A DNA stretch of 64,000 nucleotides from positions 773,493 to 837,492 of the forward strand of contig OZ244884.1 in assembly GCA_965221365.1 (NCBI GenBank). Direction: 5' to 3'. The notes under the pieces are model-generated. The model saw only the letters and a program-made list of their open reading frames with translations, did no database searches and was not told the DNA's origin. Below are positions 12,001-56,490 of the stretch, in pieces (the stretch's first letter is position 1; each line of letters starts with the position of its first letter). A program made the translations under genes and the position numbers. This DNA comes from Nitrospirales bacterium. GTDB taxonomy: Bacteria; Nitrospirota; Nitrospiria; Nitrospirales; UBA8639.

Positions 12001-15000
12001 ATGTCCTGGCCTTGCACGAACTCCAGGTTCACCGTGCCGGCCAGCACCACCAAATTGCCACCGGCCACGTTCACGTCCCAGGTGGTGCCGTCCGTGCCGA
12101 CTGCCGTCGCCGTCTCCGTCCCGTCCGTACCCCGAACGTGGAAGTCATCGTCGGACACATTCACCACCGCCTCGCTGAACGTCACCCGCCAGGTCAAGGT
12201 CACCGCGTTGGTGGGCGAAGTTGGCGGATCATGTCGCACAATGCTCGCCACCCGCGGCGCTTGGGTGTCCGCAGTGACAGTGATGTTGAACGTGAGGCTG
12301 GCCGTGTCGCCGTCGGCGTCGGTGGCGGTGTAAGTGTAGGCTGTCGCGCTCTGGGCCGTGGTCGGAGTGCCCGTCAGGGTGCGGGCGGTGGCGTCGAAGG
12401 CCAGGCCCGCCGGGGCGGCCGGGGCCAAGCTGTAGGTCAGGGTGCCGTTGCCGCCGGTGGCCTCGGGCAGGTTCAAGGTGGCGATGGCGGCGTTCTGGGC
12501 GTAGGTCTGGTCGGCAATCGTGACGCCGGCGGCGAAGCTGGGCGCAGGATTGTACTGCGCGGTCACGGTAGTCGCCGCCGCATTGTCGTTGCCGGCGGCG
12601 TCTTGCGCCGCGCCCGCCGCAACGCCGACGCTGAACTCGCCCGCGTCCTTCGGCGTGATCTTCGCCGTGTAGACCGCTCCCGCCCCCGTGCCCGATTGGG
12701 CGAATTCCGTGGCGTCGGCGTTAGTCAGCGTGATGTCACCAAGCTCGAAGCCGGTGACCGGTTCGCTGAAGGTGAAGGTGGCATCCACCGCTGCGGTGAC
12801 TGTCCCGGAAACGCCCGTGATGGCCACTGTCGGCGCCACGTTGTCCACCACGAAGGTGTTGTCGTTGGTGCCGGTCGGCGTCCGGTCCCGGACCGCAACG
12901 CTGGCGCAGTTTCGGATAACCCCGTCCGACTTCAACGTCATCGTCACCGTGCCGTTGTAGTTGGCGAGGTCGCCGCCGTAAAGCTCGACGGAGAATGCCA
13001 GTCCCGCATCCCCGCGGATCCGGCATCTGCGGGCCGCGCCCAACCTGTTCGCGACCAGCGTCGGCGCGTTCGCGATCGGCGGGTCGTAGGCAACCTCGTA
13101 TGCCCCCGGTCCGCCGGCCTGCCCGTACAGCACCAGTTCGCTGAACACAACCTGCCACGTCAACGTGTCCGCGTTCGTCGGGGAGGTTGTTGGCATGTGC
13201 CGCGTGATGTCTTCCACGCCGGGCACCGTGCCCGTCGTCACGCTCACCTCGCTCGCCTCGCCGTTGCCGGCGGAGTTGGTGGCGCGCACTTGAAACCTGA
13301 ATTCGGTGCTTTCGGTCAGGTTATACGCGTCGAAGTACGTGCGCGTGGCAGGGAGATTGGTCCAAATGTCGGTGGTGTCATCAAACGGCAGGTCAGCCGT
13401 GGCCTTGTAGCGAACCTGGAGGTTGGTAAGCGAACTGGCGTTGGTCGGGTTGGTCCAGGACAGGGTGACCTGGTTGCCGCCGACGAAGGCGGTCAGGTTC
13501 GTCGGCGCGTCGGGGACGGCCAGTGCCGGTGTTGCGGTGACAGTGCTGGAGGCGTCGCTGTTGCCGTTGGCGTTGACGGCGCGGATTTCGAAAGCATATT
13601 GGGTGGCGTTGGTGAGGCCGGTGACCACGTGGCTGGTGGTCTGGTCGTCACTGGGGTCGATATCGTCCCAGGTGGCGGTGGCCGGCACGGTGGAACCCGC
13701 GCCGTAGCGGACCTGGTACTTGGTGATGCTGGTGTCGGACGGATCGGTCCAGTTCAGCGTGACCGTGGTGTCGCCCGCGGTGGCGGCCAGGCCGGTGGGC
13801 GCGGCGGGTGCCGGCGGCGCCTCGATGGTGATGTTGAACGTCAGGCTGGCCGTGTCGCCGTCCCCATCGGTCACCGTGTACGTGTATTCGGTGGCGGCCT
13901 GGGCGGTGGTCGGCGTGCCGGTGAGGGTGCGGGCGGTGGCATCAAACGTCAGGCCCGCCGGCGCCGTCGGCGTGAACGTGTACGTCAGCGGGGCGTCGCC
14001 GCCGGTGGCCTGCGGCAGGTCGAGCTGGGTAATCGCCGAGTTCTGCAGGTAGGTCTGGTCGGCAATGGTCTGGGTGCCGAAGTCCGGCAGGTTGTCCGCG
14101 GTAATCGTGATGTTGAACTTCAGCTCGGCCACATCCCCGTCGCCATCGGTCACCGTGTACGTGTATTCGGTGGCCCCCTGGGCGGTGGTCGGCGTGCCGG
14201 TGAGGGTACGGGCAGTGGCGTCAAACGTCAGGCCCGCCGGCGCCGTCGGCGTGAAGGTGTACGTCAGCGGGGCGTCGCCGCCGGTGGCCTGCGGCAGGTC
14301 GAGCTGGGTAATCGCCGAGTTCTGCAGGTAGGTCTGGTCGGGAATAGTCTGGGTGCCGAAGGTCGGTAGCGCGTTCGCGGTGACCGAGACCGTCGCCGTG
14401 AGGCCGGCGTAGTTGCCGCCGGCGGCGGTCAAGGTGAGGGTCGCATTACCGTCAGTCGGGCTCGCCGCCATGTTCACGGTGACCGTCTGCGCGGTGTTGT
14501 AGTTCGTGGCGGTGAACGTCAGCGACGTCGGGCTGACTGTCACGTCCGTGTCGTCGCTGGCCACGGTGACGGTGACCGAGGCGGTCGGGGCCGCGGCCAG
14601 GGTCACGTCAAAGGTGGCGCTGCCGCCCTCATCCACCTCCAAGGTGGCCGGTGAGACTTGGATGGCCGGATCCGGTCTGGGCGTGGCCGTGACCGTGTCC
14701 GAGTCCGGGCCGTTGGCCGTGCCGACCACGGCGCGGACCTGGAACGCATAGGTCGTGCCGTTGGTCAGGGTGTCAACGGTGTGGGTCGTGGTCGTCGCGC
14801 CGCTGCCGGTGATGTCCCCCCAGGTGGCGGTGGCGGGTACGGTGGACCCGGCGCCGTAGCGCACCTGGTACTTGGTAATGGTGCTGTCATTCGGGTTGGC
14901 CCAGGTCAGCGTGACCTCGGTGTCACCGGCCGTGGCGGTCAGGTTGGCCGGCTTGGCCGGGGCCTCGTCCACATCGGTGACCGTCACCGTGTAGGCGGCC

Positions 15001-18000
15001 GAGGTCACCGTGTTGGTGTTCGCATCCGTCGCCGTTAACGTGTACTCGTAGGTGTTGCTGGTGTCACTGTCGGTCGGGGACTCAAAGTCCCGCGCCGCCA
15101 AGCTCACCCGCGCCCCGGTCTGACTCTGGTTCGCCGCCGGCAGCGTAAACTCGCCCGCATCCGCCCCGCCCAGCGTCCAGGTGACCGCACCCAACGCGCC
15201 GACTAAGGTCGCATCAATGGTGTAGGCCTGGTTCTCGCTCACACTGGCATCGGCCAGGCCCGTGAGCGTCAGCGTTGCGGTCTCGTTGACATTGGTAATG
15301 GTGATGGACACGCCGACGGTGGCGCTGTTGCTGTCATCGTCGGTGGCCGTGAGCGTGTACTCGTAAATATTGTCGGTATTGTTGTCCGTCGGGACCTCGA
15401 AGTCCTTCGCCGTCAGGGTCACGGTGGCGCCGGTGTTGGTCGCGTTCGACAGCACAAACCCGTTCGCGTTGGCGTCGTCACCGGTCAGGGACCAGGTGAT
15501 GTTGCCCACCGGCGTGCCAGTCAGGGTCGCATTGCCGGTGTAGGCCGCATTCTCGGCTTGGTCGGCATCGGCCACATCGCCGATGGTCAGGGTGGCCGCG
15601 ACGCGGATGTCAAACGTCAGCGTGACCGGATCCCCGTCCGCATCGGTTGCGGTGTACGTGTACTCCGTCGCCGCCTGAGGCACGGTCGGGGTGCCGGTGA
15701 TCTCCCGACTGCTCGCGCTGAACGCCAGGCCCGCGGGCAGCACCGGACTCAGGCTGTACGTCAGTGTCCCGTCACCGCCGGTGGCTTGGGGCAGGTTCAG
15801 CGTGGTGATGGCTGTGCCCTGGGTATAGGTCTGGTCGGGAATGGTCTGGGTGCCGAAGCTCGGCAGCGCATTCGCTGTGACCGCGACCGTGGCCGTGAGG
15901 CCGGCGTAGTTGCCGCCGGCGGCGGTCAAGGTGAGGGTCGCAGTGCCGTCGGTCGGGCTCGCCGCCATGTTCACGGTGACCGTCTGCGCGGTACTGTAGT
16001 TCGTGGCAGTGAATGTCAGCGGAGTCGGGCTGACTGTCACGTCCGTGTCGTCACTGGCCACGGTGACGGTGACCGAGGCGGTCGGGGCCGCGGCCAGGGT
16101 CACGTCAAAGGTGTTGCTGCCGCCCTCATCCACCTCCAGGGTGGCCGGTGCGACTTGGATGGCCGGGTCCGGTCTGGGGGTGGCCGTGGCCGTGGCTGCA
16201 GCGCCGTTGCCGGCGGTGTTGCTGGCCCGCACGGCAAAGGTGTAGCCCGTGCCGTTGGTCAGGCTCGTGGCCGTGTAGGTCGTGACGGTGGGGGCCAGAT
16301 TGGTCCACGTATCGGTGGTGTCATCAAACGGCAGGTCAGCCGTGGCCTTGTAGCGGACCTGGAGGTTGTCAATCGTGCTGGCGTTGGTCGGGTTGGTCCA
16401 GTTCAGCGTGACCGTGGTGTCGCCCGCGGTTGCAGTCAGGTTGGTGGGCGCGTCAGGGATAGGCAAGGTCGGGGTGGCGGTGGTCGTGGCGGCCGTACCG
16501 TCCCCGGCAGTGTTGCTGGCGCGCACCTCGAAGGTGTAGCCCGTGCCGTTGGTCAGGCCGGTCGCCGTGGTGGTCGTGGCCGTGACGGCAAGATCGGTCC
16601 AGGTGTCGGTGGCGACGAACGGCAGATTGGCGGTGGCCTTCCAGCGCACCTGGACCTTGTCAATCGTGCTGGCGTTGGTGGGCAGCGTCCAAGCCAGTGT
16701 CACCGTGGTGTCACCCGCCGTGGCGCTCAGCCCCGTCGGCGCGGCCGGAACGGCCAGCGCCGGCGTCACCGTGACCTCGTCCGACTCGGCCCCCTCGCCC
16801 TGCTCGTGGACCCCGCGCACCTTGAAGGTGTAGGTGGTGCCGTTGGTCAGCCCTGTCACGTCCTTGCCGGAAATCGACAAGGAAGCGCTGTCGGCGATGT
16901 CGGTCCAGGCGAGAGAGGTGCCGTCATCGCCAGTGTAGGTGTACTGCCACTTCAGGATCGCCGGCCCACGCTGCACCACCGTGGCCGCCAGCGTCACCTT
17001 CGCATCCCCGGCGGTTGCGGTGAAGCTGGACGGTTTCTCAAGCAGGTAGAGCGGCCTGCCGCTCAGACCATCACTGAGGTGACCGACCCATTCATCGCAG
17101 GCGAAGGAATGGACGAGCACACGGGCATCGTAAGTCGTGTCATCAAGCGTGACGGCAATCTCGTTGGGATTGTTAGTATTAATCGGGGTTTGCTGGTTGA
17201 TGGTGAAGCGCTTGTTGGTAACGCCATTACCAAGATTCTCAACAACTTCAAAGCTTCCGCTGTTGACGTCGTTATTGATAAGGGGGTTACCTTGCCAAGC
17301 GTCACCAGTCTTCTTGTATTGGACTAAGTAGCGCTCGACTGCACAAGAATTGCCCTTGCTCCAGCTCCAGACCACGTCGAGGTCGGTATCGTTGGTGCCC
17401 GGCCCCACGCTGACTATTGTTGGAGCGGGCGGCACCTCGTTGATTGACGGCACCTCCCACACCGTGTCCGAGGCATCGCTCTCACCGCCGGCATTTACCG
17501 CGCGGATCTGGAATGCGTATAGGAAGCCGTTGGTCAGGTTGTCAACGGTGTGGGTCGTGGTCGAGGCGCCGCTGGACGGGATATCCGCCCAGGACACGCT
17601 GTCCGGAATGTCCACAACGTTAACATCGTAGCGCACCTGGTACTTGGTGATGCTGGCGTTTTGCGGGTCTGTCCACGACAGTGTCACTTCGGCTTCGCCC
17701 GCTGCGGTGGTCAGGCCGGTGGGCGCGTTCGGGATCGGCGGCAATGGCGTGGCCGTGGTCGTGACGGCCGTCCCGTCCCCGGCAGTGTTGCTGGCGCGCA
17801 CGGCAAAGGTGTAGCCCGTGCCATTGGTCAGGCCCGTCGCCGTAGTGGTCGTGGCCGTGCCGGCAAGGTCGGTCCAGGTGTCGGCAGCGACGAACGGCAG
17901 ATTGGCGGTCGCCTTCCAGCGCACCTGCACCTTGTCAATCTCACTGGCGTTGGTCGGCAGCGTCCAGGCCAGGGTGGCCTCGGTGTCACCCGCCGTGGCG

Positions 18001-44679: not shown

Positions 44680-47079
44680 ATGGCACGGGCCCGCACGTCA
44701 CCCAGAGGCGATGTCGCCCGAGCCCCTATCACTACGGTGCCGCTGGATCAGACCACGCGCCAGCGGTACCTGAACTACGCCCTGTCCGTGATTACCGCCC
44801 GTGCCCTGCCCGACGTGCGAGACGGGCTGAAGCCGGTGCAGCGCCGCATTCTGTTTTCCATGTTTCACAACCACCGGTTATCCCCCGACCGTCCGCCCAT
44901 CAAGAGCGCCAAGGTCGTGGGGTCGGTGATCGGCGAATGGCATCCCCACGGTGATTCCGCGGTCTATGACGCCATGGCCCGCATGGCCCAATGGTGGTCC
45001 CTTCGCGCGCCCCTCGTGGACGGTCATGGCAACTTCGGCAGCCTGGACGGGGACCCGCCGGCGGCGTACCGGTATACCGAAGCCAGGCTCACCCCGATCG
45101 CCGTCGAACTGCTGACCGAACTGAACAAGGACACGGTTGACTTCCAGCCGAATTACGACGGCAAGGACGAAGAACCGCTGATCCTGCCCGCTCCGTTTCC
45201 GAACCTGCTGGTCAATGGGTCCACCGGCATTGCCGTGGGGATGACCACCAACGTGCCCCCCCATAACCTCGAAGAAGTCATCAACGGAGCCGTGGCCCTG
45301 ATCGACGACCGAACGTGCACGACGTCCGACCTCATGAAGTCGATCAAGGGTCCCGATTTTCCCACCGGCGGGGAAATCCTGAACTCCCGAACCGAGCTTC
45401 GCGAGATCTATGAGACCGGCCAGGGGATGGTGCGCCTGCGCGGGGAGTTCACCGTGGTGCCGGGCTCGCATGGCAAATCCCGGATCGTCGTCACCTCGAT
45501 CCCCTTTGCCGTGGATAAAGCCACGATCCTCGAACGCATCGGCGAACTCATCGCCGGCAAAAAAGTGCCGCAGTTGGTGGACGTTCGCGACGAGTCCACG
45601 ACCGACGTCCAGATCGTGCTGGAACTTCAGAAGGACGCCGATGCCGACGTGGCCATGGCCTATCTGTTCAAACATACTCCACTCCAGGGTAATGTGTCCG
45701 TGAATCTGACGAGTCTGATTCCGGTTCCGGGAACCACGACCGTCCGTCCGCAATGCCTGCCCCTCAAGGAGATCCTCGAACAGTTCATCGATTTTCGCTT
45801 TGAAACGGTCACGCGCCGGTTGTCTCATGACCTGCGCATCCTGGAGCAACGGCTTCACATCCTGTCGGGGTTTCGCGTCATCTTCGATGCCCTGGACGAG
45901 GTGCTGACCATCATCCGTCAGAGTGACGGCAAAGCCGATTCCGCGAAAAAGCTGAAACGTCGATTCCGACTCGACGACGCCCAGACCCACGCGATCCTGG
46001 AGACGCCGATCTACAAGCTCTCCCGGACGGAAATCCAAACCATGTTGGATGAGCTGGCCGACAAGACGAAGCAGGCCCATGACCTCAAGACCCTGCTCGC
46101 CTCGAAGAGCAGGATGTGGAACGTCGTCAAGCAAGAGCTCCGGGCCCTCGCCAAGACGTATGGCGACAAACGGCGGACCAGGGTCGGACGACGCCAAGGG
46201 GACCCCGTCGAATTCGACCCCGAGGCCTACATCGTCAAGGAAGACGCCGTGGTGACGATTTCCACGGACGGATGGATTCGCCGCGTCGGGATGATCAAAG
46301 ACCTGTCGAAAGCCCGGCTCCGGGAAGGGGATACCCTCCTGACGGCCTTGATCGGCAGCACGGTGGATACCATGGTGTGCTTTTCGAATTTCGGTAGCGC
46401 GTACACCATTCGCATTGGCGATCTGGCCCCGGCTCGAAGCGGGTATGGCGATCCCGCGCAAAAGTTGTTCAAATTCAAAGACGGGGAACGCATCATTGCC
46501 GCGCTCAGTGCCGATCCCAGATGCGCGGCCTCGTCAGCTGAACGCCCCGCGACGTCGGCCCTTCCGCTTTTCGACGGAGCACCGTCACCCGCCCTTCGGC
46601 AAGGGCTCGCCGTCTCATCGGCCGGCATGGGCGTGCGCTTTGACGTGGCCCCCTTCAAGGAGCCCTCGACCCGACTCGGTCGAAAATTCATGAAACTCCG
46701 GGACCGGGAAGAAGTCGTGGGCGTCGAAACCCTGGACCCCGCGGCCACGTCCATCCTCGCGGTCGCCTCCCGACGCGGGCGCGCGCTCCTGTGCCAAGCC
46801 GAAGAAATCAGCGTGCTCTCCGGTGCGGGACGAGGGGTCACGGTCATCAAACTCGAGAGCGGGGACCACGTCATGGCCGTGCGCATGTTGTCGCGGAAAC
46901 AGGACCAGTTGATCGTCCTGAAACAGGACGGCGGCAAGCTCCCGATTTCGGCGAGGAAATACCAGCCCGTCAGCCGCGGGGGCAAGGGTCACGTGCTGTT
47001 CAAACGCGGAACCCTGAAAGGAGCCGAACCGTTGCCCGTCGAACTGCCGGTCCTCGATTCGGAACGTCACGACGCGTAA
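44680..47079 (+). CDS. Type IIA DNA topoisomerase subunit A (GyrA/ParC family; ParC-like length)
   Basis: YLNYALSVITARALPDVRDGLKPVQRRILF, HPHGD and the catalytic-Tyr region AAYRYTEARL. 799 aa. I saw no GyrA-box at the usual position in the CTD. Confidence 0.9.
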   Translation: MARARTSPRGDVARAPITTVPLDQTTRQRYLNYALSVITARALPDVRDGLKPVQRRILFSMFHNHRLSPDRPPIKSAKVVGSVIGEWHPHGDSAVYDAMARMAQWWSLRAPLVDGHGNFGSLDGDPPAAYRYTEARLTPIAVELLTELNKDTVDFQPNYDGKDEEPLILPAPFPNLLVNGSTGIAVGMTTNVPPHNLEEVINGAVALIDDRTCTTSDLMKSIKGPDFPTGGEILNSRTELREIYETGQGMVRLRGEFTVVPGSHGKSRIVVTSIPFAVDKATILERIGELIAGKKVPQLVDVRDESTTDVQIVLELQKDADADVAMAYLFKHTPLQGNVSVNLTSLIPVPGTTTVRPQCLPLKEILEQFIDFRFETVTRRLSHDLRILEQRLHILSGFRVIFDALDEVLTIIRQSDGKADSAKKLKRRFRLDDAQTHAILETPIYKLSRTEIQTMLDELADKTKQAHDLKTLLASKSRMWNVVKQELRALAKTYGDKRRTRVGRRQGDPVEFDPEAYIVKEDAVVTISTDGWIRRVGMIKDLSKARLREGDTLLTALIGSTVDTMVCFSNFGSAYTIRIGDLAPARSGYGDPAQKLFKFKDGERIIAALSADPRCAASSAERPATSALPLFDGAPSPALRQGLAVSSAGMGVRFDVAPFKEPSTRLGRKFMKLRDREEVVGVETLDPAATSILAVASRRGRALLCQAEEISVLSGAGRGVTVIKLESGDHVMAVRMLSRKQDQLIVLKQDGGKLPISARKYQPVSRGGKGHVLFKRGTLKGAEPLPVELPVLDSERHDA

Positions 47080-47087
47080 CCCCTGCT

Positions 47088-47850
47088 CCGTCATTCGCGA
47101 GAAGCCCCCCATTCGTCATCCCTGCGGCTCTCGTCGTCATTCCTGCGAAGACCCCCAATCGTCATCCCTGCGGCTCTCGTCGTCATTCCTGCGAAGACCC
47201 CCAATCGTCATCCCCGCCAATGCCCCTTCCGTCATCCCCGACGTTTGTAATCGGGGATCCAGGGCTTTTGCTTCTTCCTTTTTTCTGGATGCCGGATCGG
47301 AGTCCGGCATGACGGAGAGGGATGCCAGGTCGAGTCCGGCATGACGTTGAGGCCCTTGAGTCGTCATTCCGCGTCCCCGTCCGTCGCACCCGCACACGCC
47401 CCCAATCGTCATTCCCGCGAAAAGCCTGCCCTCGACATCTTTAATCGGGGGCGGGAATCCAGGGCCTTTGCCTTTTCCTTCTTCTGGATGCCGGATCGGA
47501 GTCCGGCATGACGACTGAAGGCCTGTGGTCCGTCATTGCTATGAAGACCACCATTCGTCATCCCCGACATTTTTAATCGGGGATCCAGGGCCTTTGCTTT
47601 TTCCTTTTTCTGGATGCCGGATCGGGGTCCGGCATGACGGAGAGGGATGCCAGGTCGAGCCCGGCATGACGGAGAGGGATGCCAGGTCGAGCCCGGCATG
47701 ACGACTGAAGGCCTTGAATCGTCATCCCCCGACGCGCCCAATCCGTCGCACCCGCCTCCAATCGTCATTCCCGCGAAAGCGGGAATCCAGGGTCTTTGCC
47801 TTTTCCTTCTTCTGGATGCCGGATCGGGGTCCGGCATGACGGAGAGGGAT
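47088..47850. repeat. Array 5 of the nested-palindrome repeat family (forward orientation)
   Basis: Modules as in array 1. It includes the 107-nt composite element at 47407-47513. Confidence 0.9.
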
Positions 47851-48011
47851 TCAGAGACAACTCGTGGAAAGGGTACCTCTGAAGCGTTGCAAAATGATCT
47901 ACCCGCCTGCCTGATCCGTTGAATGTTGCGCAATAATGGTGCATAATAGATACAAATAAGAGCTAAAAGGCGCTATATTGATGACAAATTGATTCTATTT
48001 GGAGACAAAAG

Positions 48012-48272
48012 ATGCCAAGAAGAAGCATTTCTATCACAGAAACACATAATGAATGGCTGAAAGCCCAAGTTGCGAGCGGACAATATCGCTCGGAAAGTGA
48101 AGTCATCAGCGATCTTATCCGGGACCGACAAAACCGGGACGCGGGCGTCGAGGCCATTCGCCTTGCGCTGATCGAAGACGAGAAATGCGGCCCCGGCACC
48201 CCCACGACTGAAAACGTCCGAACTGCGGTGCAGGAGCGATTACGGAAAAGCGGCCCGCTGCCCATTCAGTAA
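48012..48272 (+). CDS. ParD-type ribbon-helix-helix antitoxin-like protein (no cognate toxin gene adjacent)
   Basis: ISITETHNEWLKAQVASGQYRSESEVISDLIRDRQNRDAGVEAIRLALIEDE matches the ParD (COG3609-type) pattern from memory. GGAGA lies 6 nt upstream of the ATG. Confidence 0.75.
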   Translation: MPRRSISITETHNEWLKAQVASGQYRSESEVISDLIRDRQNRDAGVEAIRLALIEDEKCGPGTPTTENVRTAVQERLRKSGPLPIQ

Positions 48273-48483
48273 TCCCTTGCCGACTCGGATCGCCGCGGCA
48301 AATACGGAGTCCTGCCATATTCAGGATTGAGACCAAGCAGAGAAGAGGTCTACAGTTCAACTTATCCGGCACCCCGACCTTTCTGAAAATCGGCATAGAC
48401 GTCGACCGGAACGGGTCTTGACTGTCGATGCATCGCATGATGAACCCGACGCGGCAGATGAGGAATGCTAATGGAGAAAGCTG

Positions 48484-49743
48484 ATGATCACGCTGATTGA
48501 AGCACTGAACTACCGTTGCTTGCGGTACGTGCAGAGACCCCTGAAGCCGTTTCACGTCCTGGTCGGGCCGAACGCATCGGGAAAGACCACTTTCTTGGAC
48601 GTCATTGGTCTGCTGAGTGATCTCGTATCCAACGGGTTGGACGCCGCTCTGTCCGATCGCACCTCGAATCCCCAAGAACTCCTCTTTCGGCGCCAAGGTG
48701 ATGGGCTGGAATTGTTGATCGAGGCGCGCATTCCCGAGGAGCTTCGTCAGCAGACGTCGAAACCTGAACTGGACACAATAAGATATGAAGTGGCAATCGG
48801 CTTTGATGAAACGCGGCACCAATTCGAGTTGAAGGCCGAAACCCTGTTATTGAAGAAAGCCAAGGCCTTGAACCTGCCCCAACGCTCATTATTTCCCATG
48901 CCTCCCAGTACACCGGATTCCCTGCTGACCAAGTCCCGTCAACGGGGCAACAAGATCGTGATGAAAAAGATGCCGGGAGGAAACGACAATTTTTATAGTG
49001 AGAAAGATTCTCGTGCTGGCAAGGGTTGGGCACCCTCGATCAGATTGGGACCGGGGAAATCTGTCCTCGGCCATTTCCCTTTCGACGGAAATCAATTTCC
49101 CGTGGCTGCATGGTTTCGAGCATACTTAACCACTGGAGTTCAGCGGTTCGTGCTCAACAGCCATGCGATCAAGCACCCCAGTCCTCCCATGAAGTTTTCG
49201 GGGTTTTTGTCGGACGGCTCAAATCTTCCCTGGGTTGTGCGACGTCTCCGGAAGGACGATCCGGAACGGCACCGTGCTTGGATCGCTCATCTTCGGACGG
49301 CCCTTCCCGATCTGGTGGACGTTGCAACCTCTTTACGGAGAAACGACAGTCACTGCTATATGTTCTACGAATATGAAGGCAGGCTGAAAGTGCCTTCATG
49401 GCTGGTTTCCGATGGCACGCTCAGACTGACGGCCCTCACCTTACCTGCATATCTGAACGATCATCGAGGCATCTATCTGATAGAGGAGCCTGAAAACGGG
49501 ATTCATCCGAAAGCCGTGGCCACCGCGTATGATTCCCTCTCCTCGGTCTATGAGGCCCAGGTGTTGTTGGCGACCCATTCTCCGGTCGTCCTGAGCAAAG
49601 TCGACATGAAAGACGTGCTGTGCTTTGCCAAGAATGACGACGGCTCAACCGACGTCGTTCTTGGCTCTGAACATCCCTTGCTTCAACAATGGCAGGGTAC
49701 CACTGACCTTGGGACCTTGCTCGCCTCCGGGGTCCTGGGATGA
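48484..49743 (+). CDS. SMC/RecF-like ABC ATPase (AAA_15/AAA_21 type) without a fused nuclease domain
   Basis: Walker A GPNASGKTT, signature-like SDGTLRL, Walker B IYLIEEPENGIHP and H-loop LATHSP. GGAG lies 7 nt upstream of the ATG. Confidence 0.85.
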   Translation: MITLIEALNYRCLRYVQRPLKPFHVLVGPNASGKTTFLDVIGLLSDLVSNGLDAALSDRTSNPQELLFRRQGDGLELLIEARIPEELRQQTSKPELDTIRYEVAIGFDETRHQFELKAETLLLKKAKALNLPQRSLFPMPPSTPDSLLTKSRQRGNKIVMKKMPGGNDNFYSEKDSRAGKGWAPSIRLGPGKSVLGHFPFDGNQFPVAAWFRAYLTTGVQRFVLNSHAIKHPSPPMKFSGFLSDGSNLPWVVRRLRKDDPERHRAWIAHLRTALPDLVDVATSLRRNDSHCYMFYEYEGRLKVPSWLVSDGTLRLTALTLPAYLNDHRGIYLIEEPENGIHPKAVATAYDSLSSVYEAQVLLATHSPVVLSKVDMKDVLCFAKNDDGSTDVVLGSEHPLLQQWQGTTDLGTLLASGVLG

Positions 49744-50369
49744 CCAGAAAAAACCTCATTGTTCTCGCAGCCGATAAAAACATCGAATATGCTCTGAAAG
49801 GACTGTTCAGCAGACCCGAAGCACTCGGAATCCGTCGAATTGAGACGGAGATTTTCATTCATCCCCGCCGTGACCCCGGGTGCGTGCAAGACGGCGTTGC
49901 ATTTCTGTCCAACTTCTCGGAGCAATATGACTACGGTCTGCTCATGTTTGATTATGCAGGAAGTGGGAAAGAGCGAAAGCAACAGCCCAAGGAGTTACAG
50001 GAGCTGCTGAACCATGAATTGGACGGTTCGGGATGGCATGGGCGAGCCAAGACAATCGTGTTGTTGCCGGAGATTGAGGCGTGGATCTGGAGTGATTCTC
50101 CCCACGTTCCCGACGTGGCAGGATGGAAGCGTCGGCAGCCGTCACTTCGACAATGGCTGATTGAGCAAGGCTGGCTCGAAAAAGATGCCGTCAAACCCAA
50201 TCAACCAAAAGAGGCGTTCCTGGCAACCTTGCGCGAGGCTCGCACGCAGCGCAGTGCATCCCTGTATCAGCAGATTGCGGAAAAAGTTTCCTTACGTCGA
50301 TGCAAGGATCATTCGTTTCAGGAATTCAGAGACATTCTGAGAGCCTGGTTCCCACAAGAGAGCCAATGA
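49740..50369 (+). CDS. Small partner of the ATPase (209 aa), possibly DUF4276-like
   Basis: ATGA start/stop overlap with the ATPase gene. Motifs LIVLAADKNIEYAL, LLMFDYAGSG and LLPEIEAWIWSD. The family assignment is from memory and unverified. Confidence 0.7.
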   Translation: MTRKNLIVLAADKNIEYALKGLFSRPEALGIRRIETEIFIHPRRDPGCVQDGVAFLSNFSEQYDYGLLMFDYAGSGKERKQQPKELQELLNHELDGSGWHGRAKTIVLLPEIEAWIWSDSPHVPDVAGWKRRQPSLRQWLIEQGWLEKDAVKPNQPKEAFLATLREARTQRSASLYQQIAEKVSLRRCKDHSFQEFRDILRAWFPQESQ

Positions 50370-50438
50370 TGAGTAACAACTGACGTCACACGTTGCGGAT
50401 TGCCGGAAAATACAACCGCAGAACACGGCAAGCGGGGC

Positions 50439-51983
50439 ATGACCCTGGCCAAAGCCTTTCACGCAAGCGACCAGAGTCTGCCAATGGATGCAGACAGATT
50501 CCAGCCCTTGCCGACGCCGAGCTACGATAGCAATGAGCCTCCAGGACAATCCCCGATGAGCCGTCGTGTCGCCACTTCAACCCACTTATGCGAGCGCCCG
50601 ATGTCATGGGTTAAAGCGAACCCTGGGTTGGCTGTTCTGTGGGCTCTGCTTTTCATATTCGTTCTGATTTTCGCGACTTTCCTGTTCGTCATGTTCTCCG
50701 AGGATTGTGAAGCATGGATCGGCCAACGTTTGGGGTTATCCGAAAAAAACGAAATTCTCTCCTTTCTGGGAATCGGCATGGGTGGCATCCTGCTGACCAT
50801 ACAAGCCGTGATCGCGAACAGGCGCGCTAAAGCGATGGAAGAGCAAGCGAAAGCGCAAGTCACGGCCACGGAAAATCAGGCAGAGGCCAACCGACAAACC
50901 GAGAGAGGGCAGCGGCAGGAACGCCTGAAACTCGGCATTGAACACCTGGGACACGGCTCATACTCCGTGCGGCTGGGCGGGGCTTATGAACTGTTCCACC
51001 TTGCTCAGGATACAGAAGAACTGCGCCAGACGGTTCTGGACATTCTCTGTGCTCATCTCCGCCAAACTACGGGCAAAACGGACTATCGGGAGCAATACCC
51101 TAACAAGCCTTCAGAAGAAGTTCAAAGCCTGCTGACCCTGATGTTCGTAGAGGAACATACAGTCTTCGAGGGCCGGCGGATCAATTTGCAAGGAAGCTGG
51201 CTGAATGGGGCCCGGCTCTGGAAAGCGCGCCTGCAGGAAGCCAACCTTACAGATGCACACCTGCAAGGAGCCTACCTTGTAGCTGCACGCCTACATAAGG
51301 TTAATCTCGCAAAGGCACAACTCCAAGGTTCTATTCTTCATGTCGCGTGCCTGAATGGAGCCTTCCTTGCAGATGCACACCTGCATGGGGCTGATCTCGA
51401 AGAAGCAGAAGCGAAAGGCTTTTATTCTAATCTCCAGAGAGCGCACTTGTATGGAGCTAATCTTGCGGGCGCGAAGCTGCAAGGAGCACGTCTTTCTAGC
51501 GCATTCCTTCGAGGAAGTATTCTTGATCATACGCACTTAGAAGGAGCTGCTCTTTCGAAGGCCTCCCTACAAGGAGCGAACCTTGTTGGTGCCTCCCTGC
51601 AAGGAGCTACACTCAGAGGCGCTCATCTGGGAGGAACCACGACTCATGGGTCTTATAATGACATGTCTTTCCCTGAGCGCATAAGAAAGCAGATCGGCAA
51701 GCCCTCTGAGTTTATCAATGCGACCTTCGCGGGCGGATTGAACCAAGAAGACGTAGACTCCAGCGTCCAAGGATTGGACGACCAACAGGCAAACTTGTTA
51801 CGTCGGATACTCAACCCCCATATCAACAGGCCAGCCAGCAATCAACTACCGGAAAACAGCGAGGCCAATACCGGAACCTATTCCTCAGAAGATGCCGAAC
51901 AATGGATCGCCGAATACGAAAAGGCTATGGCGAAGGACAAAGACCGCTCAACCCATGCCAAATCTGAACTGGTTGACCCATGA
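50439..51983 (+). CDS. Membrane-anchored pentapeptide-repeat protein
   Basis: Two TM helices (LAVLWALLFIFVLIFATFLFVMF; ILSFLGIGMGGILLTIQAVIA), a coiled coil rich in A/E/Q/R, then about 30 A(D/N)LxX-type pentapeptides (ANLTDAHLQGAYLVAARLHKVNLAKAQLQGS...). The start is uncertain (TTG 50400, ATG 50439, ATG 50601). GC is visibly lower than the flanks. Confidence 0.8.
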   Translation: MTLAKAFHASDQSLPMDADRFQPLPTPSYDSNEPPGQSPMSRRVATSTHLCERPMSWVKANPGLAVLWALLFIFVLIFATFLFVMFSEDCEAWIGQRLGLSEKNEILSFLGIGMGGILLTIQAVIANRRAKAMEEQAKAQVTATENQAEANRQTERGQRQERLKLGIEHLGHGSYSVRLGGAYELFHLAQDTEELRQTVLDILCAHLRQTTGKTDYREQYPNKPSEEVQSLLTLMFVEEHTVFEGRRINLQGSWLNGARLWKARLQEANLTDAHLQGAYLVAARLHKVNLAKAQLQGSILHVACLNGAFLADAHLHGADLEEAEAKGFYSNLQRAHLYGANLAGAKLQGARLSSAFLRGSILDHTHLEGAALSKASLQGANLVGASLQGATLRGAHLGGTTTHGSYNDMSFPERIRKQIGKPSEFINATFAGGLNQEDVDSSVQGLDDQQANLLRRILNPHINRPASNQLPENSEANTGTYSSEDAEQWIAEYEKAMAKDKDRSTHAKSELVDP

Positions 51984-52034
51984 TGAAGTCCTTTGCGCTG
52001 CCATGCGCGGCCTCGGTTGCTGGAAGAGGGCGCG

Positions 52035-52400
52035 GGGATGACGATTCAAGAGCCTCATCCGTCATGTCGGACTCCGATCCGGCACCAGAAAGACTGAAAG
52101 ACAAGACAAAGAAAAAGCCCTGGATTCCCGCGTTCGCGGGAATGACGTATTTGGACGCCGGACTCCTCCATTCGTCATGCCGGCCCTGACCTGGTGGCCA
52201 GAAAAGCAAAGGCACCAGTCGTCATGCCGGACCCCGATCCGGCATCCAGAAAAAAGGGAAAAGCAAAGACCCTGGATTCCCGCCCCCGATTAAAAACGTC
52301 GAGGGCAGGCTTTTCGCGGGAATGACGGATCGGGGCATTGGCGGGGATGACGAATGGTGGTCTTCGCGGGAATGACGAACTGGGCGTGCGGGAATGACGG
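52035..52400. repeat. Array 6 of the nested-palindrome repeat family (reverse orientation)
   Basis: CCGTCAT-GTCGGACTCCGATCCGGC-ACCAG...CTGGAT-TCCCGCGTTCGCGGGA-ATGACG and related modules. Confidence 0.9.
52208..52327. repeat. 120-bp perfect direct repeat, copy 1 (copy 2 at 53320-53439)
   Basis: Character-by-character comparison shows AAAGGCACCAGTCGTCATGCCGGACCCCGATCCGGCATCCAGAAAAAAGGGAAAAGCAAAGACCCTGGATTCCCGCCCCCGATTAAAAACGTCGAGGGCAGGCTTTTCGCGGGAATGACG is identical at both sites. Confidence 0.9.
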
Positions 52401-52500
52401 GCTGGGGGGACTCAAAAGTCGATCGATTCCATCGATGTGGTGCACTCGATTCGTTCTGCCACTCTATGGTCCACGCCCTACAGCCTGCCTTGTGGAGGCC

Positions 52501-52546
52501 TTGAAACGACTCATTCCTTAATGTAATAATTTCTTACATCCTTACA
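52501..52546 (+). promoter_or_regulatory. Candidate promoter/operator of the AbrB-PIN cassette
   Basis: TTGAAA (52501-52506), 17-nt spacer, TAATAA (52524-52529). The inverted repeat ATGTAA/TTACAT (52521-52526 / 52534-52539) overlaps the -10. A second TTACA lies at 52542-52546. Confidence 0.45.
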
Positions 52547-52558
52547 ATCCTGAATGTC

Positions 52559-52783
52559 ATGCTTGCCAAACTGACATCAAAAAACCAGTTGACTCTCCCG
52601 AAAGCGATATTGGCCGCTTTCGAAGGGGTGGAGTATTTTGAGGTAACCGGAGCGAATGGCTCCATCGTTCTGACGCCCGTGCAGATCAGTCGCGTGGGCA
52701 CCGTGCGCGCCAAGTTGGCCGCATTGGGCCTGTCCGACGCAGACGTGGCCGACGCTGTGGCTTGGGCGCGTCAAGCGGAATGA
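52559..52783 (+). CDS. AbrB/SpoVT-fold antitoxin (VapB/MazE-like)
   Basis: MLAKLTSKNQLTLPKAILAAF is a swapped-hairpin AbrB-type N-terminus. Its stop overlaps the downstream PIN gene start (ATGA). Confidence 0.75.
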   Translation: MLAKLTSKNQLTLPKAILAAFEGVEYFEVTGANGSIVLTPVQISRVGTVRAKLAALGLSDADVADAVAWARQAE

Positions 52784-53220
52784 GCCCACCCCGAGTTGTC
52801 ATCGATACCAACGTGCTGCTTTCGGCACTCCTGTTTCAGGCCGGGACGCTCTCCTGGCTACGCACGGCTTGGCAGGCCCGCCGCATCTGTCCACTGGTAA
52901 GCCGCGAAACGATGAACGAATTGCTTCGAGCGCTGGGCTATCCGAAGTTCGCCCTGACCAACGACGAGCGGGAGGAGCTGCTGGCGGATTATCTGCCCTG
53001 GTGCGAAACCGTCCACGTATCGAAACCGTCAGGGATTCCACCGTGCCGTGATCCATTCGATCTCCCTTTCCTTGAACTTGCGCGCGTGGCTCAGGCCGAT
53101 GCCTTAGTCACCGATGACAAGGATCTGCTTGATATGGCTCAAGGCTTTCCCATTTCGATTCTCACCCCTCGCGCCTTCCGTAAGCGCCTCCCACCCGCCA
53201 AACGGCCGGTGAAGTCGTAG
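52780..53220 (+). CDS. PIN-domain toxin (VapC-like)
   Basis: VVIDTNVLLSALLF... and LVTDDKDLL carry the acidic PIN residues. ATG 52780 overlaps the antitoxin stop. The track start is TTG 52762. Confidence 0.8.
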   Translation: MSPPRVVIDTNVLLSALLFQAGTLSWLRTAWQARRICPLVSRETMNELLRALGYPKFALTNDEREELLADYLPWCETVHVSKPSGIPPCRDPFDLPFLELARVAQADALVTDDKDLLDMAQGFPISILTPRAFRKRLPPAKRPVKS

Positions 53221-53302
53221 AGCGCGCGTTGGTTACATCGCCCGGGGAGGACAAATTCGGATTCAAGTGGCTGGCTGAAACGGTCGCGTTTCAAACATGG
53301 GG

Positions 53303-53485
53303 GCATGCGGGAATGACGGAAAGGCACCAGTCGTCATGCCGGACCCCGATCCGGCATCCAGAAAAAAGGGAAAAGCAAAGACCCTGGATTCCCGCCCCCG
53401 ATTAAAAACGTCGAGGGCAGGCTTTTCGCGGGAATGACGATTGGGACGCGTGAGGTGTGGAGGGGCATGCGCGGGGATGACGAAT
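53303..53485. repeat. Array 7 of the repeat family (contains copy 2 of the 120-bp perfect repeat, 53320-53439)
   Basis: See 52208-52327. The 3' extension ATTGGGACGCGTGAGGTGTGGAGGGGCATGCGCGG is shared with array 8. Confidence 0.9.
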
Positions 53486-53639
53486 GGGGCGTGCTGTGGA
53501 TAGAGAACGAGAACCTGCACAGGCCATCGTCTCGGTTATTGGAAGAGGTGACCGGGGCGGCGGTAAGGACAGGTGTTGGCGTTGACTCAAAAATCGTTTG
53601 ACGTTTGCACCTTACCGCTTTGCATAGTATGTTTTTGCC

Positions 53640-53927
53640 ATGCTCCGGTCATGGCGCAACACGGCGAGCCGCCAAATCTGGGAAGGAAAACGGCTCAACA
53701 GATTCCGTGGTCTGGATTTTGATATGGCTATCGATTTGTTGCTGGCGCTGAATGCCGCTGAAACGATTCGAGACGTGAGTCCACTCAAGAGCGTTGGGCT
53801 GCACAAACTCAAGGGGGAGCGAAAAGGACAATGGGCGATGACCGTAAACGGACCTTGGCGGATTTGCTTCGGGTTTCGTAAAGGTGACGCATTCAATGTC
53901 GAGATTGTCGATTGCCACAGAGGATAA
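53640..53927 (+). CDS. higB: HigB-type (RelE-fold, plasmid maintenance system killer) toxin
   Basis: 95 aa with ..LHKLKGERKGQWAMTVNGPWRICFGFRKGDAFNVEIVDCH, the typical HigB C-terminus. It is followed 4 nt later by higA. Confidence 0.8.
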   Translation: MLRSWRNTASRQIWEGKRLNRFRGLDFDMAIDLLLALNAAETIRDVSPLKSVGLHKLKGERKGQWAMTVNGPWRICFGFRKGDAFNVEIVDCHRG

Positions 53928-53931
53928 AACC

Positions 53932-54216
53932 ATGCACCCTATTGCACACCCTGGCAGATTGTTGAAGCGCGAGATTGAGGCGCGCAACTTGAGCGCCAAT
54001 CGGTTGGCCTTAGCTCTCGGCGTTCCTTCTGGCCGTATCACGGATATCTTGAACGGCCGCCGATCCATCACGGCTGAGACCGCAGTGCGGCTTGGCCGCT
54101 ATTTCGGCAACAGTCCCCGTTTCTGGCTCGAGCTCCAGAGCCAATACGATGTTGCCCTGGTCGAACGTGACCGCGGCACAGAAATAGCCGAACAGGTGCG
54201 GCCTGCCCGTGCCTGA
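53932..54216 (+). CDS. higA: HigA-family HTH (XRE) antitoxin
   Basis: HPGRLLKREIEARNLSANRLALALGVPSGRITDILNGRRSITAETAVRLGRYFGNSPRFWLELQ. ATG 53932 follows AGAGGA. The track start is GTG 53884, inside higB. Confidence 0.85.
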   Translation: MHPIAHPGRLLKREIEARNLSANRLALALGVPSGRITDILNGRRSITAETAVRLGRYFGNSPRFWLELQSQYDVALVERDRGTEIAEQVRPARA

Positions 54217-54282
54217 CGGCGTCGGCGGAATCCATCAAGGTGTTCGACGAACAGGCTCGACAGCTCGTTGCGGAGACGTGTT

Positions 54283-54540
54283 TGGAGGCCGGACTCCTCC
54301 ATTCGTCATGCCGGACCCTGATTCGGCATCCAGGGGAAAAAAGAAAAAGTAAAAGCCCTGGATCCCCGCCCCCGATTAAAAAAGTCGAGGGCAGGCTTTT
54401 CGCGGGAATGACAATTGGGACGCGTGAGGTGTGGAGGGGCATGCGCGGGAATGACAGACTGGGCGCCGGGAATGACTGAAGGGGCGTGCGAAAGGGACAA
54501 GGCCTTGCAGGAATGACGGACGGGGGATCGGGATGCCAGG
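54283..54540. repeat. Array 8 of the repeat family (diverged third copy of the 120-bp element at about 54303-54411)
   Basis: CGTCATGCCGGACCCTGATTCGGCATCCAGGGGAAAAAAGAAAAAGTAAAAGCCCTGGATCCCCGCCCCCGATTAAAAAAGTCGAGGGCAGGCTTTTCGCGGGAATGAC. Confidence 0.85.
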
Positions 54541-54573: not shown

Positions 54574-56490
54574 ATGACTGCTAAATACGATGCGAGCGAA
54601 ATTCTTGTGCTGGAAGGGATTGACCCGGTTCGCCGAAGACCGGCGATGTACATCGGCGGGACCGACAAGACCGGCCTGCATCATCTCGTGTGGGAAATTC
54701 TGGACAATGCCATCGACGAAGTCATCAATGGGTATGCCACGATGATCACGGTGGAACTCGATAAGACGGGTGACGGCATTCGCATCACCGACAACGGTCG
54801 CGGGATTCCGGTCGATCAGCACAAGCAATACAAAAAGTCGGCACTGGAAATCATCATGACGACGCTCCACGCCGGCGGCAAATTCGAAACCGGCAGCTAC
54901 ATCCATTCCGGCGGATTGCACGGGGTCGGGGCCTCGGTGGTCAATGCCCTCTCCGATTACATGGAAGTCACCGTGAAACGGCACGGGCATGAATGGCAAC
55001 AACGGTATCGGGCCGGCAAGCCCCTGGGGCCGGTCAAACAGGGGAACGCGGCGCGGGGCACGGGCACGTCGGTGTATTTTCGCCCGGACCCGATCATTTT
55101 CGGGAAGCAGACGACCTTCGATTCGACCCTGTTACGGAACACGCTGGAAGCCAAATCCTATCTGCACAAAGGACTCCGGCTCTCGTTCAAGGACGGGCAC
55201 ACGCACGAGTTCGTCCATGAGCAGGGTATCGAAGAATACCTCGTCAAGCTCGTGAAGGATCGTGGCTCGAACCCCACTGCGGACTTCGTGTTTTATCTGG
55301 AGCGTCGCCTGGACAACACCGCTGCGGACGGCTTTGCCATGGAAGTCGCCCTGCAATGGACCGATGAACCCGCGGAATTCATCCGGAGTTACGTGAACGG
55401 CGTGGCCACGTCGAGCGGCGGCACGCATGAATCGGGTCTGCGCAGCGGCATCGTGAAGGCCATGCGTCATTACATGGAGACGCACAACCTCACGCCGAAA
55501 GGGCTCAGTATCCAGGCCGATGATATTCGCGAAGGCATGGCCTGCGTCCTGAGCGTTCTCATTCTGTCTCCGCAATTTCAGGGCCAGACCAAGGAACGGC
55601 TCAATAATCCCGAGGTCCAGGGGCTTGTGGACAACGCCCTGCGACCACCCCTGGAAAATTTTCTTCACGAAAATCAAACCATTGCCGAAACCCTGGTCGG
55701 CCGCATGATCCTGGCGGCGCGCGCGCGGGAAGCGTCCCGTGAGGCGTCAAAGGCCGTCATCCGCCAATCTGCCGTGAGTCATCGCCTGAATCTGCCGGGC
55801 AAGCTGACGGACTGCCAAAGCACGGATCCTGCATGCAGCGAGCTGTTCGTGGTGGAAGGGGATTCCGCAGGAGGGACAGCCAAGCAGGGCCGCGATCTGA
55901 ACACCCAGGCCATCTTCCCCATCCGGGGCAAGGTGCTGAACACGGAGGAACTGACCCTCGGCAAGGTGGTGGAGAACAAGGAACTGTCGGACCTGGTCAA
56001 AGTCCTGGGCTGCGGGATCGGGCGGGATTTCGATCTCAAGAAGTTGCGATACCACAAGATCATCCTGCTCATGGACGCGGACGTCGATGGCTACCACATC
56101 AGCACGTTGCTGCTTACCTTCTTTTTCCGGCACGTCCCGGAATTGATCAGGCAGGGATACGTGTATCTTGCTCAACCGCCCCTCTACCGCATCGACGTGG
56201 GGAAGACCGTCCATTGGGCAGGCTCGGATGAAGAGAAGGAACACGTTCTGGCCAAGGCCCCGGGCAATACCAAGCCGGTCATCAGCCGATTCAAGGGGCT
56301 CGGCGAAATGTTTCCTCAACAGCTCAAGGAGACGACAATGGATCCCGGGACGCGCCGGCTCCTGAAAGTCGAACTGCAGGATGAACTCGATACCGACCGC
56401 ACCTTCCGGGATCTCATGGGCAAACGCACCGAAGCCCGGTATGAGTTTCTGATGGCCAATGCCGCCCTCGCCGATCATCTGGACGTGTAG
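54574..56490 (+). CDS. Type IIA DNA topoisomerase subunit B (GyrB/ParE family; 638 aa)
   Basis: LEGIDPVRRRPAMYIGG, LHHLVWEILDNAIDE (GHKL ATPase), EGDSAGG (Toprim), PIRGKVLN and LMDADVDGYHI. Confidence 0.9.
   Translation: MTAKYDASEILVLEGIDPVRRRPAMYIGGTDKTGLHHLVWEILDNAIDEVINGYATMITVELDKTGDGIRITDNGRGIPVDQHKQYKKSALEIIMTTLHAGGKFETGSYIHSGGLHGVGASVVNALSDYMEVTVKRHGHEWQQRYRAGKPLGPVKQGNAARGTGTSVYFRPDPIIFGKQTTFDSTLLRNTLEAKSYLHKGLRLSFKDGHTHEFVHEQGIEEYLVKLVKDRGSNPTADFVFYLERRLDNTAADGFAMEVALQWTDEPAEFIRSYVNGVATSSGGTHESGLRSGIVKAMRHYMETHNLTPKGLSIQADDIREGMACVLSVLILSPQFQGQTKERLNNPEVQGLVDNALRPPLENFLHENQTIAETLVGRMILAARAREASREASKAVIRQSAVSHRLNLPGKLTDCQSTDPACSELFVVEGDSAGGTAKQGRDLNTQAIFPIRGKVLNTEELTLGKVVENKELSDLVKVLGCGIGRDFDLKKLRYHKIILLMDADVDGYHISTLLLTFFFRHVPELIRQGYVYLAQPPLYRIDVGKTVHWAGSDEEKEHVLAKAPGNTKPVISRFKGLGEMFPQQLKETTMDPGTRRLLKVELQDELDTDRTFRDLMGKRTEARYEFLMANAALADHLDV

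Follow-up and report, generated by a model that had tools for sequence, protein, structure and literature searches.

Do three consecutive genes in a Nitrospirales bacterium form one anti-phage system, or do they belong to different systems that happen to lie together? We addressed this for a stretch of 64,000 nucleotides (nt) of contig OZ244884.1, referred to below as the window. An earlier note, made from the letters of the window alone, had proposed a three-gene conflict or defence operon at 48484-51983, consisting of an ABC ATPase that lacks a nuclease, a small overlapping partner and a membrane-anchored pentapeptide-repeat protein (PRP). The three open reading frames, their motifs and the ATGA overlap were found as described, all on the same strand:

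48484-49743, + strand: gene 1, 419 amino acids (aa), ABC ATPase.
49740-50369, + strand: gene 2, 209 aa, small partner; its start overlaps the stop of gene 1 by 4 nt (ATGA).
50400-51983, + strand: gene 3, PRP gene, as the mechanically called open reading frame.

We consider it likely that two independent conflict modules lie next to each other here, within a variable defence and toxin-antitoxin (TA) island, namely a MAD3/MAD4 cassette (genes 1 and 2) and a PRP gene (gene 3).

Gene 1 matched the Pfam families AAA_21 (103.8 bits), AAA_15, DUF2813 and SMC_N, and Pfam detected no Toprim or nuclease domain in it. Its Walker A (G28-x4-G33-K34-T), signature-like (S309-D-G-T-L-R, residues 309-314), Walker B (Y331-L-I-E334-E335) and H-loop (T364-H365) motifs were invariant across 10 homologues; the Pfam scan and this alignment together confirmed the motifs and the lack of a fused nuclease that had been read from the sequence. 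The nearest solved relatives by sequence were an OLD-family nuclease (6p74) and PtuA. Gene 1 matched NCBIfam model NF047739 (antiphage_MADS3, MAD3) over its full length, with 491.5 bits against a cut-off of 420. Its best PADLOC model was HEC-01A (PDLC04182; 135.3 bits, E 6.6e-40, residues 2-416), followed by AriA (110 bits, partial), mad3 (100 bits), AbiLi, Old and GajA. Gene 1 is predicted to encode an ABC ATPase of the OLD/PtuA/AriA type without a fused nuclease.

Gene 2 matched NCBIfam model NF047734 (antiphage_MADS4, MAD4) with 215.9 bits against a cut-off of 160, and its sole PADLOC match was a weak one to HEC-01B (PDLC04210; 21.6 bits, E 3.6e-5). No Pfam family matched even at E<=1, DUF4276 (PF14103) included, and neither Pfam nor PADLOC gave a DUF4435 or AriB match. 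The likeness to DUF4276-type partners that the earlier note had suggested was right only in spirit, as gene 2 looks like a small Toprim-like partner. The motifs AADKNIE, MFDYAGSG and PEIEAWIWSD, singled out there as conserved and acidic, are indeed the most conserved blocks of the family, and the family-invariant acidic residues D12, D45, D71, E78, E111 and E113 lie within them. An AlphaFold model of gene 2 (predicted local distance difference test, or pLDDT, of 92; built on 24 homologues) had as its top Foldseek match in the PDB 6njv, the Toprim-containing C-terminal region of Xanthomonas OLD; this match was well separated from the others (E 6.5e-3, prob 1.0, TMq 0.48, 230 aligned columns), but it is borderline and concerns the overall fold. 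A profile of the MAD4 alignment returned nothing meaningful from PDB sequences, and the fold comparison alone was informative. Because the model best matches the Toprim region of OLD, the nuclease is probably supplied in trans by gene 2. The description of the pair as nuclease-less would then fit gene 1 only, and the pair would be a split OLD-type ATPase/nuclease. These results indicate that genes 1 and 2 are not a new pair; they are assigned to MAD3/MAD4 in NCBIfam and to the HEC-01 type in PADLOC, an already named candidate anti-phage pair. The pair had been taken for an uncharacterised one, and a match of this kind had been named beforehand as evidence against the proposal.

The distribution of the pair was examined by a scan for MAD4 relatives in 185,579 species genomes, with one genome per species, and 485 loci were found to encode such a relative. 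Neighbourhoods were counted over 10 kilobases (kb) on either side in the best 80 of the 485 loci (L003-L082). A MAD3-like gene, 47-77% identical, was situated immediately upstream of the MAD4-like gene in all of them (80/80), and clustering of all neighbouring open reading frames showed that no other neighbour family exceeded 13/80. Gene 2 appears to be an obligate, translationally coupled partner of gene 1. Nucleotide similarity between the window and the other pair loci begins ~13 nt before gene 1 and ends at the stop of gene 2, and the conserved unit appears to be the two genes themselves, autonomous from any conserved third gene. Genes for type I restriction-modification (R-M; HsdS/M/R) were near the pair in 12 loci and DUF499/DUF1156 genes of the Hma type in 8, which gives 20/80, and the remaining ~60 had metabolic or miscellaneous neighbours with no detectable modification genes. 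The pairs keep 50-77% aa identity across distant phyla. The 80 loci span many phyla, and many of them resemble sponge-symbiont lineages (Latescibacterota, Dehalococcoidia, Caldilineaceae, Binatia, Nitrospinota and Spongiisociaceae); the concentration of the pairs in metagenome-assembled genomes of marine-sponge-symbiont-type lineages suggests frequent horizontal transfer in that habitat. MAD3/MAD4-type cassettes are common and stand alone about three times oftener than beside modification systems, which suggests an autonomous split-OLD module and not a MADS-specific accessory.

MAD3 and MAD4 are components of the methylation-associated defence system MADS, an eight-gene operon of Pseudomonas aeruginosa SMC4386 in which MAD1, MAD2 and MAD5 resemble R-M components (MAD2 a methyltransferase, MAD5 a specificity subunit), and deletion of mad3 or mad4 weakens the defence (Maestri et al., bioRxiv 10.1101/2023.03.30.534895). 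The MacSyFinder model of MADS treats MAD6-8 as mandatory and MAD3/4 as accessory, with a maximum inter-gene distance of 10 (10.1101/2023.03.30.534895). The window resembles MADS in that both proteins pass the equivalog cut-offs of MAD3 and MAD4 and share the gene order and the tight coupling, but it differs in that MAD2, MAD5 and MAD6-8 were found neither in the window nor near the 80 related pairs, as far as their neighbours were sampled. MAD1/2/5-8 were tested by NCBIfam scans of neighbouring genes. MAD6, MAD7 and MAD8 were not detected within 10 genes on either side of the pair, the large open reading frames elsewhere in the window had no MADS match, and the island held no MAD2 N6 methyltransferase, MAD5 specificity subunit or any HsdS-like gene. 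No large neighbour of the related pairs that was tested scored above the cut-offs of the MAD models, and a plasmid collection searched for the reference MADS operons yielded only distant ATPases (33-35% identity) in non-MADS contexts. Since the other MADS genes are absent, the pair is an orphan MAD3-MAD4 cassette and not a MADS system.

HEC-01 is described as an ABC ATPase with a TOPRIM partner embedded in Hma systems, and HEC-01B shares the conserved metal-binding site of OLD (Payne et al., bioRxiv 10.1101/2024.01.29.577857). The window appears to have the same two-gene architecture, with HEC-01A as the best PADLOC model of gene 1 and HEC-01B as the only one of gene 2, and Hma-type or type I R-M loci enclose a quarter of the relatives of the pair; the window pair, however, lies outside any modification system, and its HEC-01B match is weak. 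With OLD (P2 Old, class 1/2) and GajA the pair shares an ABC ATPase of the same clade and, for gene 2, a fold that best matches the OLD Toprim/C-terminal region, whereas ATPase and Toprim are fused in one chain there and are two proteins here; the GajB helicase of Gabija also has no counterpart here. PARIS likewise splits an ATPase scaffold or sensor from a separate Toprim effector, and gene 1 gives its partial match to the AriA model; AriB, however, is a DUF4435 Toprim nuclease, and gene 2 is not DUF4435 or AriB.

In the proposed mechanism, module 1 (48484-50369) would be a self-contained, translationally coupled cassette, in effect an OLD-family nuclease split into an ABC ATPase and a Toprim-like partner. 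By analogy with OLD, PARIS and Gabija, an oligomer of the ATPase would bind the partner and hold it inactive. The insert regions of the ATPase might sense a phage cue, possibly an anti-restriction protein or a DNA end, upon which the nucleotide state would change; the Toprim partner would then be activated or released and cut nucleic acid, and the infection would stop. As the cassette comes without methyltransferase or MAD6-8 genes, it must either act autonomously or be inert. The compact 2.2-kb cassette in the window would be a good test case for stand-alone defence by such pairs.

Gene 3 did not travel with the pair. In the neighbourhoods of the pair homologues, tblastn found a gene 3 homologue in 0/80 loci. 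The closest relative available, locus L002, has flanks 95-98% identical to those of the window by blastn, with a pooled proportion of synonymous differences (pS) of 0.048 and the same gene order. There the PRP gene lies directly after a ParD-like gene, and the 2.2-kb MAD3-MAD4 block (window 48285-50504) is missing. In the window, the junctions are marked by the following features:

48012-48272, + strand: ParD-like ribbon-helix-helix (RHH) gene (Pfam ParD_antitoxin, E 1.4e-9), at the left edge of the variable slot.
48274-48284, + strand: first of two copies of the 11-nt direct repeat CCCTTGCCGAC, at the left boundary of the MAD3-MAD4 block.
50505-50515, + strand: right copy of the same repeat, bounding the block on the other side.

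The sequence CCCTTGCCGAC occurs just twice in the window, where chance would give 0.09 copies, and once in L002, at the empty site. The block containing the pair thus appears to be a discrete indel, which would have arisen by insertion with duplication or by deletion via microhomology, and gene 3 would retain its native upstream region. A general role of CCCTTGCCGAC as a recombination site was considered and rejected, given that it is present at this site and elsewhere by chance. Other loci conserve neither the leader nor the tail of the 2.2-kb block, which left the ends of a mobile element undefinable. The slot upstream of the PRP gene holds an SLFN_AlbA_2/HATPase_c_4 protein in L084, L086 and L092, another AAA_15/21 ATPase with a 170-aa partner in L085 and L091, Fic in L101, HigBA in L103 and nothing in L002 and L104; the 170-aa partner in L085 gave a weak DUF4276 match (E 0.005) and is unrelated to gene 2. 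The three-gene operon did not hold against these comparisons, and gene 3 appears to stand outside the system of the pair, with different conserved partners elsewhere (Mod/Res).

The start of gene 3 had three candidates: TTG 50400, the first TTG and the mechanical choice; ATG 50556, used in the public annotation (475 aa); and ATG 50601 (460 aa). The L002 orthologue has a closed frame ahead of its first transmembrane (TM) helix, which favours ATG 50601, and gene 3 likely covers 50601-51983 on the + strand with 460 aa. From this start, the spacing between gene 2 and gene 3 is 231 nt. Gene 3 matched the Pfam family Pentapeptide with 106 bits and had no match in PADLOC (PADLOC-DB v2). In its AlphaFold model (pLDDT 87), N-terminal hydrophobic helices span residues 8-32 and 49-73; the second TM helix runs on as a single long stalk helix (49-116) and is followed by a helical bundle to residue 182, a beta-helix at 183-347 (~33 pentapeptides) and a C-terminal alpha/beta domain at 350-444. 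The two hydrophobic helices and the pentapeptide repeats were as first noted, with ~33 repeats against the ~30 counted then. The repeat part corresponds to:

51147-51641, + strand: pentapeptide beta-helix of gene 3, residues ~183-347 (DSSP of the model).

The structural matches of gene 3 in Foldseek were all pentapeptide-repeat proteins, including the MfpA, Qnr and AlbG folds. By the positive-inside rule, with an acidic loop between the TM helices and NRRAK after the second, the beta-helix would face the cytoplasm.

Full-length homologues of gene 3 were found at 45-60% identity, and ~400 clusters match just its N-terminal 190 residues, many of them truncated forms. In the family alignment the TM hairpin is conserved and the helical domain (LGGAYELFHLA...KPSEEVQSLLTL) highly so; a pentapeptide block that varies in length and in surface residues comes next, and then a conserved C-terminal domain (...WIAEYEKAMS). 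Gene 3 shares the right-handed quadrilateral beta-helix with MfpA, Qnr, AlbG, McbG, cyanobacterial HetL and Np275/276. It differs from pentapeptide DNA mimics and cyanobacterial PRPs in adding a TM hairpin, a stalk helix and conserved helical and C-terminal domains, and the partners of its family are type III-like Mod/Res genes, not topoisomerase or heterocyst genes. A metagenome scan for relatives of gene 3 gave 14 loci, and a viral-contig scan gave none. Two side observations concern the N-terminal module. Many proteins that match in this module only (P0247-P0366) are 170-330 aa long, some of them on megabase contigs, and they could reflect frameshifts, truncation, misassembly of the repeats or phase variation. 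In L002 (8172-9704), the PRP orthologue carries a tandem duplication of the N-terminal TM-hairpin module, with four predicted TM helices and not two.

Among ~19 sampled PRP loci, a PRP-Mod-Res operon was present in 10, where the whole sample of ~20 neighbourhoods draws several loci from two related lineages. In L085, L086, L087, L091, L092, L101, L102 and L104, the stop codon of the PRP gene overlaps the start of an N6_N4_Mtase gene (511-517 aa), which is followed by ResIII (879-889 aa); the operons lie at 7001-13765 in L085, 7001-13498 in L104, 7001-13129 in L101 and 7001-13955 in L102, and the methyltransferase after the PRP is 64-92% identical among L085, L101 and L104. In L084 and L090 a KAP NTPase separates the PRP gene from Mod, and small cassettes (DUF1902, HD-associated, GIY-YIG) lie between Mod and Res in some loci. 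L095 has a DUF499 gene whose end is overlapped by the PRP gene. Mod/Res are lacking beside the PRP gene in the window, in L002 and L103 and on several short metagenome contigs, and tblastn with the Mod protein found nothing in the window, which holds no fragments of Mod, Res or MAD genes. Plasmids of Rhodococcus and Anabaena carry more distant homologues of gene 3, surrounded by DUF262/HEPN/methyltransferase/TIR and AbiEii genes.

The PRP gene was also much more variable than its surroundings. Between gene 3 (50601-51983) and its L002 orthologue (8355-9701) there were 120.6 nonsynonymous and 20.4 synonymous differences, giving a ratio of their per-site proportions (pN/pS) of 1.86 (binomial p = 0.003), which is a single pairwise comparison in a repeat protein, where gene conversion is also possible; the four pooled flanking genes gave 0.11. 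The differences cluster in residues 211-460, where pN is 0.194, 4x the synonymous divergence of the flanks, and the non-repetitive C-terminal domain behaves alike (ratio 1.99). A second lineage shows allele replacement of the PRP gene and of the 5' part of Mod, with synonymous divergence (dS) of 0.7-1.6 against 0.004-0.4 in the flanks, and ratios of 0.2-0.36. These results point to a PRP gene that is hypervariable in both lineages. Mutagenesis by a diversity-generating retroelement was considered for gene 3 and rejected, as the substitutions show no specificity for adenine and the neighbourhood lacks a reverse transcriptase.

Module 2 (50601-51983) would be a separate, inner-membrane-anchored protein, encoded in relatives by the first, translationally coupled gene of a PRP-Mod-Res operon that resembles type III R-M. 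More speculatively, the protein may offer DNA enzymes or phage proteins a membrane-tethered surface, shaped like DNA, with which to interact. The DNA mimics known from elsewhere are mainly anti-restriction tools of phages or topoisomerase protectors. We suggest, only tentatively, that the PRP family is an undescribed immunity component, in which a hypervariable, DNA-shaped, membrane-tethered cytoplasmic surface partners type III-like Mod/Res and also persists alone. If so, the PRP might position or regulate restriction at the membrane, or be a decoy or sensor for phage anti-restriction proteins, and the pN/pS of 1.86 in the window together with the allele replacement elsewhere would be the footprint of an arms race. 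A literature search found no description of pentapeptide proteins linked to type III R-M or defence. The membrane-anchored PRP family, for which neither PADLOC-DB v2 nor the literature search gave a description, is the more interesting lead than the pair: a large, unannotated and hypervariable family that repeatedly leads type III-like R-M operons is a testable one.

Several observations weigh against two independent modules. The 231-nt gap between genes 2 and 3 has no predicted terminator, so that read-through co-transcription is possible; in L085 and L091, the PRP gene directly follows an unrelated ABC ATPase and DUF4276-like pair, and the adjacency of ATPase pairs of this class to the PRP gene might not be pure chance. 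The PRP partners come from only ~20 sampled neighbourhoods, and the fold match of gene 2 is a borderline one. Moreover, MAD3/4 in MADS work with six further genes that are absent here (10.1101/2023.03.30.534895), and HEC-01 failed to protect E. coli from the phages tried (10.1101/2024.01.29.577857), so that autonomous activity of such a pair is only putative. The first two of these points, with the shared strand, speak for one system of three genes, in which the pair would be the effector and the PRP, for example, a sensor or membrane tether. We regard such a system as quite unlikely and as largely refuted by the comparative data: the homologues of the pair lack a neighbouring PRP gene in every sampled locus, most PRP loci lack such a pair, L002 has the PRP without the pair across a clean indel bounded by the 11-nt repeat, the PRP gene retains its native 5' region downstream of the junction, and unrelated cassettes occupy the same slot at other loci. 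Whether the pair is functional is a different matter. It could be non-functional cargo left from a complete MADS or from a type I R-M/Hma-embedded arrangement, as would fit the merely accessory rank of MAD3/4 beside the mandatory MAD6-8, the 20/80 related pairs in type I R-M or Hma-type contexts and the lack of defence by HEC-01 alone. Both open reading frames are intact, however, and carry every family-invariant residue, and the window shows none of the gene fragments that a decayed system might leave. The ~60/80 relatives without detectable modification genes, which nonetheless keep 50-77% identity across phyla, argue for selection on the pair itself. On balance, a mere remnant is unlikely.

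For gene 3 itself, a Qnr/MfpA/McbG-like protector serving the adjacent topoisomerase is suggested by its beta-helix, by its position between the genes for the A and B subunits of a type IIA topoisomerase and by a gene for a SagB-like dehydrogenase downstream. We judge this very improbable. Against the Qnr/MfpA family models gene 3 scored 31-43 bits, with cut-offs of 240-360, and it does not have their small soluble architecture of ~180-220 aa, being a membrane-anchored protein of 460 aa with two extra conserved domains. In another lineage the family is flanked by amidohydrolase and CoA-transferase genes and has no topoisomerase in its vicinity, the partners that recur beside it are Mod and Res, and a pN/pS of 1.86 is unexpected for a housekeeping protector. 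Two separate modules, a MAD3/MAD4 cassette and a PRP gene, remain the reading we prefer.

The setting of both modules is an island at 47089-54500, between the genes for the A subunit (44680-47079) and the B subunit (54574-56490) of the type IIA topoisomerase. Within 10 genes on either side of the pair there are genes for an M23 peptidase, both topoisomerase subunits, the ParD-like protein, the PRP, MazE/PIN, HigB/HigA and a nitroreductase/SagB-like protein. The TA genes, identified by Pfam and as called genes in L001, are:

52559-52783 and 52780-53220, + strand: MazE-like antitoxin and PIN_3 toxin.
53724-53927 and 53932-54216, + strand: HigB-like toxin and helix-turn-helix HigA-like antitoxin.

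The TA context first noted held for these two modules and not for the ParD-like gene, which has no ParE partner by Pfam and among the called genes of L001. This gene is kept upstream of the slot in L002, L084, L086 and L092 with 70-99% aa identity, and it may be a regulator instead of an antitoxin. At the same topoisomerase site, L002, L084 and L086 carry differing sets of cassettes with modules in shuffled order, among them an SLFN-type ATPase, a KAP NTPase, Mod/Res, GIY-YIG and a second PRP copy. The island looks like a lineage-specific defence/TA hotspot, and the defence-island context proposed earlier was supported. Over 47.5-52 kb the guanine-cytosine (GC) content is 0.51-0.56, compared with 0.60-0.66 in the housekeeping genes on either side; the lower GC that had been ascribed to the three genes is real, but the dip extends over the whole island to ~54 kb. 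No Rfam family matched in the island, and promoter and terminator scans stayed at chance level.

The 107-nt inverted repeats that had been thought to bound the segment are present (47377-47483 and 52251-52357, 84% complementary). They belong to a palindromic intergenic repeat that is dispersed over 23.6-58.7 kb (23642-58713), where its 30-nt core, CTGGATGCCGGATCGGGGTCCGGCATGACG, has at least 20 copies, for example at 47285-47841, 52220-52249 and 53332-53361. Because the repeat is dispersed in so many copies, the inverted pair does not specifically delimit the segment, and its copies were ruled out as ends of an element. The + orientation is shared by all copies up to 47841 and the - orientation by those at 52220-54333, and the copies form clusters as follows:

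47089-47900, no strand assigned: left palindromic repeat cluster (repeat families D2-D6 and I1-I16).
52034-52400, 53320-53445 and 54275-54420, orientation opposite to the left cluster: counterpart repeat clusters.

Translation of the dispersed repeat gives rise to spurious open reading frames of the 'PAKAGIQ / WIPAFAGMT' type. Within the island, positions 53232-53288 of the window resemble the N-terminus of the KAP NTPase of L084 over 19 residues (63% identity, E 0.007); as weak evidence, this could point to a remnant of a deleted KAP-Mod-Res block. Elsewhere in the window, at 2847-19796, five large open reading frames on the + strand (1617, 873, 818, 589 and 748 aa) had no NCBIfam match, and short repeated tblastn matches suggest that they contain internally repeated segments.

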